Below, in pieces: positions 48,182-49,311 of a stretch of 49,369 nucleotides of DNA. Position 1 is the stretch's first letter, and every line of letters begins with the position of its first letter. The notes beneath the pieces are model-generated. The model saw only the letters and a program-made list of their open reading frames with translations. It had not been told where the DNA came from and did not search any database. Position numbers and translations under genes: made by a program. This DNA is from Asterionella formosa (Eukaryota), in the NCBI GenBank assembly GCA_002256025.1, contig NKIB01013960.1, forward strand, positions 1 through 49,369, written 5' to 3'.

Positions 48182-48994
48182 TTATACAATAGGAGGGCGA
48201 AATAAATTTTTACTAGGATATACGGGCTTTAATCCAAGATATGCTGGATATAGTATTTGTTTAGGATATAAATTTTTACCAATTTTTTTACCTCTTTTGA
48301 AATCTAAGTAATCCATTAAATCCTGAACTGTCATAATTTTACCTTCTTCAATATCTTCCAACTCGATCCTTACCCCAAAATAATGTTCAAATTCAACAAT
48401 CATTGAAACCAGCTCTAAAGAGTCTATTCCAAATTGGTCAATAAACTTTACTTCTGGTCTAATTGAATTGAATTCAAAGCTAAATTTAAAATGTAAAACC
48501 CACCGAACTTGCGCTAAAGTACTTTTCATAATTGTAAACGGTACCTCTGTTCTTTGAAACTTTTTTTCAACGTATTTTTTCTTACGTGTTTCGACAAATT
48601 CTACCCAAGCCCAATATCTTTTATCAGTCTTATCATAACCCTTATAAAACATCTGTCGAATATAATCTTCCGTATAAATTAACCTTCCTATTTCTCCGAC
48701 AACTAATTGACCAAAAATTATATCATCAATCAGATATTGTCCAGGCTCCAAAATTAGTTCGTCTGATGGCTCTTCAATTACTTCTTCTGCTATTTCTGGT
48801 TCCCAATACATATACAAATAGTCAACGAAACCACGAGTTCTAAGAGCCTTACCTTTAAATTCAGCTTCATATTCATCTTTAAATTCTTTAACTTTAACAT
48901 ATTCAACAATATCAATGGGTACCCAATGTTCAACGTAAGTATGAACAACAAACGCGGGTGGATAATAGAAAATTTGTGGTACATGTTCTGGCAT
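48182..48994 (-). CDS. ORF270: unknown N-terminal region fused to a divergent acyl-carrier-protein domain
   Basis: Residues ~156-232 align to neighbouring AcpP; FGIDSLELV motif (Ser192); GGAG SD 9 nt upstream of the ATG. Confidence 0.8.
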   Translation of the reverse strand: MPEHVPQIFYYPPAFVVHTYVEHWVPIDIVEYVKVKEFKDEYEAEFKGKALRTRGFVDYLYMYWEPEIAEEVIEEPSDELILEPGQYLIDDIIFGQLVVGEIGRLIYTEDYIRQMFYKGYDKTDKRYWAWVEFVETRKKKYVEKKFQRTEVPFTIMKSTLAQVRWVLHFKFSFEFNSIRPEVKFIDQFGIDSLELVSMIVEFEHYFGVRIELEDIEEGKIMTVQDLMDYLDFKRGKKIGKNLYPKQILYPAYLGLKPVYPSKNLFRPPIV

Positions 48995-49016
48995 TATTAA
49001 ATACTCCGGTTATTTG

Positions 49017-49044
49017 AATGTGTTACTATAATAAGTAACACATT
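49017..49044 (-). terminator. 11-bp hairpin between acpP and ORF270
   Basis: aatgtgttact-ataata-agtaacacatt; no long U-tail on the minus strand. Confidence 0.55.
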
Positions 49045-49053
49045 AATATAATA

Positions 49054-49311
49054 TTATTTACCTAATTTAGCAAGGTATTCCAAAACGTCTTTAACTTTAG
49101 CAATTTTAGCAGCAACAATATCTTCAATTTCAATATCAAATCTCTCTTCAACAGACATTACTAATTCTACTACATCTAATGAATCTGCACCCAAATCTTC
49201 TGTAAAGTTTGCATCAGGAGTAACTCTATTAGGATTAATATTTAACTGCTCAGCAACAATTTCTTGAACGATTTCTAAGGTAGTTTTGTCTTTATCATCA
49301 ATCTTACTCAT
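49054..49311 (-). CDS. acpP: Acyl carrier protein
   Basis: [27 protein letters not shown]; position next to trnP-ycf89-rrn. Confidence 0.97.
   Translation of the reverse strand: [85 protein letters not shown]

Follow-up and report, generated by a model that had tools for sequence, protein, structure and literature searches.

Why should a plastid genome keep two genes for an acyl carrier protein (ACP) side by side, and why should one of them be three times as long as the other? This question is raised by a locus near one end of contig NKIB01013960.1 from Asterionella formosa, which was analyzed over all of its 49,369 nucleotides (referred to as the window). Directly downstream of the canonical acpP gene, on the same strand, lies an open reading frame (ORF) of 270 codons, here called ORF270. 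We found that ORF270 carries a genuine ACP domain keeping the attachment serine, and that purifying selection acts on the whole conserved frame, also ahead of an internal methionine, Met156, at which the ACP domain begins. ORF270 is therefore very probably a real, full-length, translated gene of the acpP2 type. Judged from its sequence, the protein is composed of four parts, a lineage-specific N-terminus, an orphan domain, the ACP domain and a basic tail, which are located as follows:

49054..49311, minus strand: acpP, encoding AcpP1, a free-standing acidic ACP of 85 amino acids (ORF list; Pfam PP-binding, E 3.9e-15)
48995-49053: spacer of 59 nucleotides between acpP and ORF270 (ORF coordinates)
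48182..48994, minus strand: ORF270, extended acpP2-type gene, 270 codons plus stop, ATG start (ORF list)
48767..48994, minus strand: residues 1-76, lineage-specific acidic, aromatic N-terminus (sequence comparison)
48530..48766, minus strand: residues 77-155, conserved orphan domain (alignment A3)
48299..48529, minus strand: residues 156-232, divergent ACP domain starting at the invariant Met156 (Pfam, NCBIfam, AlphaFold)
48419..48421, minus strand: codon tct, encoding Ser192, the serine of DSL to which 4'-phosphopantetheine is predicted to be attached (GIDSLE in the translation)
48182..48298, minus strand: residues 233-270 plus stop, conserved basic Tyr/Pro-rich tail (conserved alignment columns)

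The ACP domain and the acpP2 slot

An earlier note on this DNA had placed the 270-codon frame 59 nucleotides downstream of acpP and its DSL serine at residue 192; both placements were confirmed, the motif being encoded by gac tct tta. ORF270 spans 813 bp and has a predicted product of 32.5 kDa. A search with the ACP profile, which the note had proposed as a check, matched Pfam PP-binding (PF00550) to residues 178-230 with an E-value of 1.8e-6 and 28.5 bits, above the gathering score of 20.8, and 11 of 11 family members matched the same profile. ACP models of NCBIfam matched residues 158-232, the best being NF002148 (E 1.4e-12). ORF270 was however under all curated NCBIfam ACP cut-offs (NF002148, 47.3 against 71; TIGR00517, 31.6 against 70.45; NF002151, 37.6 against 92). 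It is thus not a canonical AcpP of type II fatty-acid synthesis (FAS II) as delimited by the equivalog models TIGR00517 and PRK00982, whereas the neighboring AcpP passes TIGR00517 with 95.7 bits against the cut-off of 70.45. Nor does ORF270 have the build of a canonical AcpP, which is free-standing, about 80 amino acids long and strongly acidic; it has 270 amino acids and an overall isoelectric point (pI) of 5.27.

The identity between the ACP domain and the neighboring AcpP was 34% (alignment A1), and 35% over 80 columns in L001, a copy that is 98% identical. The earlier count of about 24 identities in 75 columns lies in the same range. The D and S of DSL, in which the serine stands at the start of helix II, were kept in 20 of the 21 rows of alignment A4, and Met156 in all 21. 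The one row lacking the serine belongs to P0012 (334 amino acids), a diverged family member that reads LNF at the position of DSL; its N-terminus is longer, and its C-terminal tail is cut or degenerate. With respect to charge, the note had stated that acidic residues of helices I/II were replaced. This holds for the recognition helix, where among the 19 residues after DSL 4 are acidic in ORF270 compared to 8 in AcpP, but not for the domain overall, which is still acidic with a pI of 4.48 and a net charge of -8 (AcpP, 4.26 and -10).

A helical-bundle ACP fold is predicted for residues 156-232. In the AlphaFold model this part has a predicted local distance difference test score (pLDDT) of 68-83, with helices predicted at residues 159-171, 193-206, 212-216, and 223-233. 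The top Foldseek matches of the model were all ACPs with target TM-scores of 0.75-0.78 (best 6lvu_A, 0.78, E 1.9e-3); no other fold was returned, and no match reached E <= 0.001. A profile of the family searched against the sequences in PDB also found ACPs only, over the ACP part only. Profiles and alignments therefore support the view that ORF270 is an ACP paralogue in tandem with acpP that has kept its serine.

Two acpP genes in tandem are not new to diatom plastids. In the searchable parts of the literature, from which all papers are cited here, two highly divergent plastid copies with 28-35% identity were attributed to an old tandem duplication (Ruck et al., 2014; PMC3971590), and two acpP clades were confirmed later (PMC10307964). 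In Chaetoceros laevisporus an acpP2 gene of 267 bp adjoins an acpP gene of 240 bp, between rpl20 and trnP (PMC8597025). ORF270 has the slot between acpP and trnP, the same-strand tandem arrangement, and an identity to AcpP1 inside the acpP2 range in common with these genes (PMC3971590, PMC10307964, PMC8597025). The candidate second carrier-protein system of the earlier note is hence not new and sits in a published position. What does not agree is the size, as 813 bp contrast with the 267 bp of C. laevisporus, and members of the ORF270 family have 218-275 amino acids, an orphan domain and a basic tail. No mention of a long form was found in the searchable text on acpP2 (PMC3971590, PMC10307964, PMC8597025, PMC12412971). 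The gene itself is known as acpP2, but its conserved extended architecture appears to be undescribed in the literature that could be searched.

Public annotation of the gene is divided. The 270-residue form is listed by four gene callers or sources (NCBI, JGI, Logan, and ENA). A record of 115 amino acids, P0163 (ENA, UniRef, NCBI nr), is identical to residues 156-270, so in one or more public annotations the gene begins at Met156. Among 35 members of the protein cluster of ORF270, one JGI contig of 2885 bp splits the gene into a 134-residue N-terminal call and a 115-residue ACP call (P0164 and P0165). The split near residue 134 may stem from an error in sequencing, or the frame may be naturally shifted or stopped there.

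Conservation of the whole frame and the added parts

Among 5.8 billion proteins searched, 11 were related to ORF270, with lengths of 171-275 amino acids. Apart from one form of 171 amino acids they measure 218-275, and they come from at least four plastid lineages. No short relative below 148 amino acids was found, and none of 19 short candidates was significant. In an exhaustive profile search of 1.84 billion representatives, four clusters were found at E < 1e-30, followed by the next at 4.9e-19, and the weaker matches listed centered on the ACP part.

A scan of metagenomes added 15 loci from four lineages, 98%, 62-65%, and 48% identical to ORF270. As far as the contigs extend, gene order was the same in all 15. 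acpP1 was found directly upstream in 14 of the 15 loci, the remaining one (L008) starting inside the ORF with no upstream DNA. The ORF that follows in the window, which we take to be ycf89-like, was found downstream in 14 of 15 (L011 is too short), and trnP lay between the ORF270 homologue and this ORF in all 7 loci checked. An upstream in-frame stop precedes the first ATG by 3-6 codons in 13 of 14 distinct loci; L008 is cut at the contig end.

Nei-Gojobori counts, pooled over three independent within-lineage pairs, gave the following ratios of nonsynonymous to synonymous proportions (pN/pS):

Lineage-specific N-terminus: 27 synonymous to 12 nonsynonymous differences, pN/pS 0.11, p 4e-11
Mid (orphan) domain: 24 to 18, pN/pS 0.18, p 8e-8
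ACP domain: 23.5 to 17.5, pN/pS 0.17, p 1.5e-8
Tail: 6 to 5, pN/pS 0.24, p 0.02

In comparisons between lineages the mid domain had an omega of 0.24-0.61 and the ACP domain one of 0.14-0.25, while the N-terminus could not be aligned. A variant allele of ORF270 in a contig from an RNA library differed by 12 synonymous and 3 nonsynonymous changes. The conserved block VPFTxMxSTLAQVRW spans the Met156 junction, and the sequence upstream of Met156 therefore belongs to the protein. The earlier note had named the state of the N-terminal frame in relatives as a test of its reading, and by first-ATG positions and pN/pS this frame is intact and constrained. On the same evidence from sequences, the production of only a protein of about 115 residues, which the note held would speak against it, is not indicated.

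The added parts differ in how far they are shared. Residues 1-76 did not resemble the corresponding N-terminal part in lineage D (E 3.0). The orphan domain that follows was aligned for 10 sequences, 27-57% identical to that of the window (alignment A3), and has 11 invariant columns (including L, I, D, G, G, I, G, Y, Y, and F). Its consensus starts with EIVLEPGxYLIxDxIFGxxVVGEIGRxIYTxEYIR and ends with EEYVEKKFERxxVPFT, with about 20 partly variable residues between. Searched against candidates of 157-2000 amino acids, a profile of the domain retrieved no proteins other than these 11 with an ACP fused to it, and in the profile searches the domain was always fused to an ACP of the ORF270 type. 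The tail has the consensus KRGKKxGKNLYPxGILYPAY, a short variable stretch, and VYPSKNLFRxPLV. It holds three Tyr-Pro motifs and a C-terminal NLFRxPLV, with a pI of 10.4 and a net charge of +9.

No relative of the added parts was found outside the family. The 11 full members and 10 pieces of the orphan domain matched no Pfam family over this domain (chance-level matches only, MDN1_4th at 0.017 and MRP-S23 at 0.028), and the best E-values of its profile against PDB sequences were 1.3 and 2.1. The Atlas gave no look-alikes for residues 70-157, and a whole-protein search of the Atlas without PF00550 gave scores of only 0.75, which is under the lead threshold. Neither the first 155 residues nor the tail had a paralogue within the window. 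The mean pLDDT was 47.3 in an AlphaFold run with 11 alignment rows and 59.5 in a run with 21. In both, the N-terminal parts and the tail were below 60, the N-terminal part at 41-58, so that no fold was assigned and a fold search with the added parts is not meaningful. Nothing in these searches supports the tethered partner domain that the earlier note had inferred here.

In a maximum-likelihood tree of ACP domains, calculated from a set that holds no named acpP2 sequences, the long family was monophyletic (99/99) on a long stem branch of 1.11. It was sister (89/80) to unnamed short ACPs of 80-89 amino acids, and apart from the plastid AcpP1 group (100/95). The best match among the short ACPs, P0014, is 41% identical to the ACP domain of ORF270, and its residue 7 aligns to residue 7 counted from Met156; the start of P0014 hence coincides with Met156. 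Viral contigs searched for the genomic context of P0014 gave one 16-residue match, and genome contigs gave bacterial ACPs of 28-35% identity and a 29-residue match of 48%, none of which was used. We infer that the ancestral acpP2 was probably a short ACP starting at the present Met156, and that one diatom lineage then gained the upstream domain and the tail.

Surroundings, spacer and expression

The window represents a red-lineage, diatom-type plastid genome. Its products include a LysR-type regulator, SecA, an AAA protein, PsbA, PheT, GroEL, DnaK, EF-Tu, CcsB, and a ClpB/ClpA-like chaperone. The rRNA operon with trnI and trnA is on the minus strand and is followed on this strand by an ORF of 353 amino acids, trnP(UGG), ORF270, and acpP. 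Between the gene for the AAA protein and psbA, at 6521-7786 on the plus strand, lies an ORF of 421 amino acids with no NCBIfam match at E <= 1e-5. The features around ORF270 are:

46881..47942, minus strand: presumed ycf89-like ORF, 353 amino acids, conserved downstream neighbor (ORF list)
48039..48115, minus strand: trnP(UGG), downstream neighbor of ORF270 (tRNA call)
49004..49007, minus strand: GGAG, 9 nucleotides before the ATG of ORF270 (sequence)
49017..49044, minus strand: intercistronic hairpin with a perfect 11-bp stem and a 6-nucleotide loop (folding)

The name of the 353-residue ORF is our own assumption and was given by no tool. The ORF had no match in Pfam and only a chance-level match in NCBIfam (E 0.14), although its identity is 72-99% across 14 of the 15 loci, the contig of L011 being too short to reach it. 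An AT-rich palindromic stretch at 47987-48044 separates it from trnP; contig placement passed over this stretch as a repeat, and all contigs from RNA libraries break there. In a close relative the block of acpP, the ORF270 homologue and the ycf89-like ORF was found at both ends of one contig of 74745 bases in opposite orientation (L003/L004), which indicates that the gene lies in the inverted repeat and is present in two copies per plastome in that relative.

The hairpin in the spacer folds with -14.4 kcal/mol (z -3.17), and 2 of 200 shuffled sequences folded equally well. The spacers of L001, L005, L007, L009, L013, and L015 all form hairpins, and those of the other lineages differ in sequence. 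This suggests that a stem-loop between acpP and ORF270 is conserved by position. A hairpin between plastid cistrons is expected of an intercistronic processing or stabilising element. The GGAG that the earlier note had reported before the ATG is present, and the 3' end of the 16S rRNA in the window has CCTCC. A Shine-Dalgarno motif was however found only in the window and L001; it was absent before the starts in L005, L007, L009, L013, and L015, and also before Met156. Since it has no counterpart in the other lineages, the motif is not conserved and cannot be used as evidence. A scan with promoter consensus sequences gave 6 promoter-like sites where 7.7 ± 3.1 were expected, and no terminator. 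With a count so near expectation the scan is uninformative.

Contigs bridging the spacer between acpP and ORF270 were found in 4 of 4 metatranscriptome runs, each from a different study, and in RNA library X15 one contig covers 48045-49369. Being assembled, such contigs show presence only and do not establish that there is a transcript, where it ends or how abundant it is; no weight is given to the uncovered parts of the ORF in X16 and X18. Within these limits the bridging contigs lend weak support to expression of ORF270. In the polyA-selected library X16, 17 unaligned T were found at the end of one contig, on the plus strand and immediately before position 46890 (window about 46881-46890). 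They may represent an A-tail 3' of the minus-strand ycf89-like ORF, and may reflect polyadenylation of plastid RNA.

Proposed role of the extended acpP2

With moderate confidence we propose that ORF270 represents an extended form of the plastid acpP2 of diatoms, with a docked or dedicated role distinct from that of AcpP1. The ORF would be translated from its first ATG into the 32.5-kDa four-part protein, and Ser192 would be phosphopantetheinylated. The orphan domain and the basic tail would dock the holo-ACP2 in cis to a fixed partner or surface; the charge of the tail would be compatible with an acidic protein or with the anionic face of a membrane. In that case ACP2 would either carry acyl groups at one place as a dedicated carrier or be a subunit that depends on them, while a freely diffusing AcpP1 would serve FAS II. 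A distinct role is favored by an intact acpP1 being kept beside the ORF270 homologue in 14 of 14 loci where this is visible, by the constant fusion of the orphan domain to this ACP, by the long stem branch that is followed by conservation, and by the loss of half of the acidic residues after DSL. A conserved product of 270 residues with an added domain and tail points to more than a spare copy of the fatty-acid carrier. The idea of other cargo, or of a scaffold or regulator, put forward in the earlier note, is still at the level of inference.

Several observations weigh against our proposal. Ruck et al. (PMC3971590) argue for functional equivalence of acpP1 and acpP2 because Asterionellopsis keeps only acpP2. 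In P0012 the serine is lost, which either argues that the carrier function is not obligatory or identifies P0012 as a decaying copy. The low pLDDT of the N-terminal parts and the tail may mean that these are disordered, or that alignments of 11-21 rows are too shallow. The ACP domain is still acidic enough overall that FAS enzymes could use it, the invariant Met156 could act as an additional internal start, and the short ACPs of the sister group may be of other than plastid origin.

The equivalence argued for by Ruck et al. corresponds to a long AcpP2 that is simply a second ACP for FAS II, with extensions that are tolerated appendages and have no docking role. It would agree with the retained DSL, the ACP-like predicted fold and the acidic pI of the domain, and with the frequent loss of acpP genes from diatom plastomes (PMC12412971, PMC10307964). 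We consider it unlikely, since purifying selection on the extensions is as strong as on the ACP domain, with invariant columns across lineages, since acpP1 is retained alongside wherever this can be seen, and since all equivalog cut-offs are missed and half of the acidic residues after DSL are gone. That the ACP fold has become a purely structural subunit of a plastid complex, with no further need of the prosthetic group, is suggested by the LNF of P0012 and by ACPs being accessory subunits in several solved complexes. The D and S kept in the other 20 rows make this quite improbable, and P0012, with its cut tail, may itself be decaying or truncated. In mitochondrial ACP the acyl-phosphopantetheine arm is part of the interface with the partner. 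The same was reported for the arm of Chlamydomonas ACP2 (bioRxiv 10.1101/2024.09.02.610899), which also speaks against a scaffold independent of the serine.

The 115-residue entry and the invariant Met156, aligned with the start of short ACPs, could be taken to mean that acpP2 is an ordinary short gene preceded by an untranslated leader of 155 codons. This is highly improbable given that the upstream frame is open in all lineages with a pN/pS of 0.11-0.18, that its 80-residue block is 27-57% identical across lineages with conservation running across the Met156 junction, and that the 270-residue form is found in four gene callers or sources, including NCBI records. Even though diatoms often lose their acpP genes or retain them as pseudogenes (PMC12412971; loss also in PMC10307964) and one contig splits the gene (P0164, P0165), a decaying duplicate or a chance ORF can hardly be entertained in view of the intact frame, the synteny and the purifying selection in four lineages.

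How a docked ACP in the extended acpP2 might work can be judged from known systems. Compared to canonical AcpP (TIGR00517; PF00550), ORF270 has the PP-binding domain, the DSL serine, the predicted helical fold and the acidity in common, but it is three times longer, is under the NCBIfam cut-offs, has fewer acidic residues after DSL, and is not free-standing. By their PDB titles, docked ACPs are found in the Orf2971/Ycf2-FtsHi motor, in complex I, and in the MmpL5-AcpM and EmbAB-AcpM complexes. The ACP2 of Chlamydomonas is a plastid ACP with an arm at a membrane complex, the Orf2971/Ycf2-FtsHi import motor (PDB 8xks_R, 8xqw_J). The arm-carrying protein is enclosed by Moc25 and is thereby connected to the inner envelope (bioRxiv 10.1101/2024.09.02.610899). 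In this system a separate protein acts as the tether, and a nuclear gene encodes the ACP, which has the ordinary size, whereas any tether of ORF270 would be in cis. Chlamydomonas ACP2 may illustrate the way in which a docked plastid ACP works, with no link of ORF270 to an import motor being implied.

Mycobacterial AcpM has a C-terminal extension. By PDB titles it is an ACP bound to the membrane proteins MmpL5 and EmbA/B/C. The NCBIfam AcpM model matched only the ACP core of ORF270 (E 6e-7, 29.4 bits against a cut-off of 146); AcpM lacks an N-terminal domain, and its tail is unrelated to that of ORF270. Mitochondrial ACP (NDUFAB1/SDAP) shows the ACP fold as an accessory subunit of complex I and other assemblies (PDB matches). 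Its LYR protein partners are separate polypeptides, and no LYR-like family was detected in the orphan domain by Pfam searches of the members and domain pieces.

A more specific form of our proposal, which we offer only tentatively as a possibility, is a plastid-encoded self-tethering ACP. In this the orphan domain and the tail would dock the holo-ACP2 permanently on a plastid membrane or protein complex, where its acyl-phosphopantetheine arm would either pass acyl chains directly to a membrane-bound lipid enzyme or report the status of acyl-ACP to the complex. If true, it would be a plastid-encoded, in-cis counterpart of the ACP-LYR and ACP2-Moc25 arrangements.

In the searchable parts of the diatom plastome papers acpP2 is treated as a divergent, perhaps equivalent, spare copy, whereas the conserved product is two to three times longer and has two modules without a counterpart elsewhere in the searches made. 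The long acpP2 changes the annotation of the gene and would explain why both paralogues are retained side by side. The orphan domain of about 80 residues and the tail with its short motifs provide handles for partner hunting. For diatoms, whose lipid metabolism is of ecological and biotechnological interest, the long acpP2 points to a specialised and probably localised use of an acyl carrier inside the plastid.

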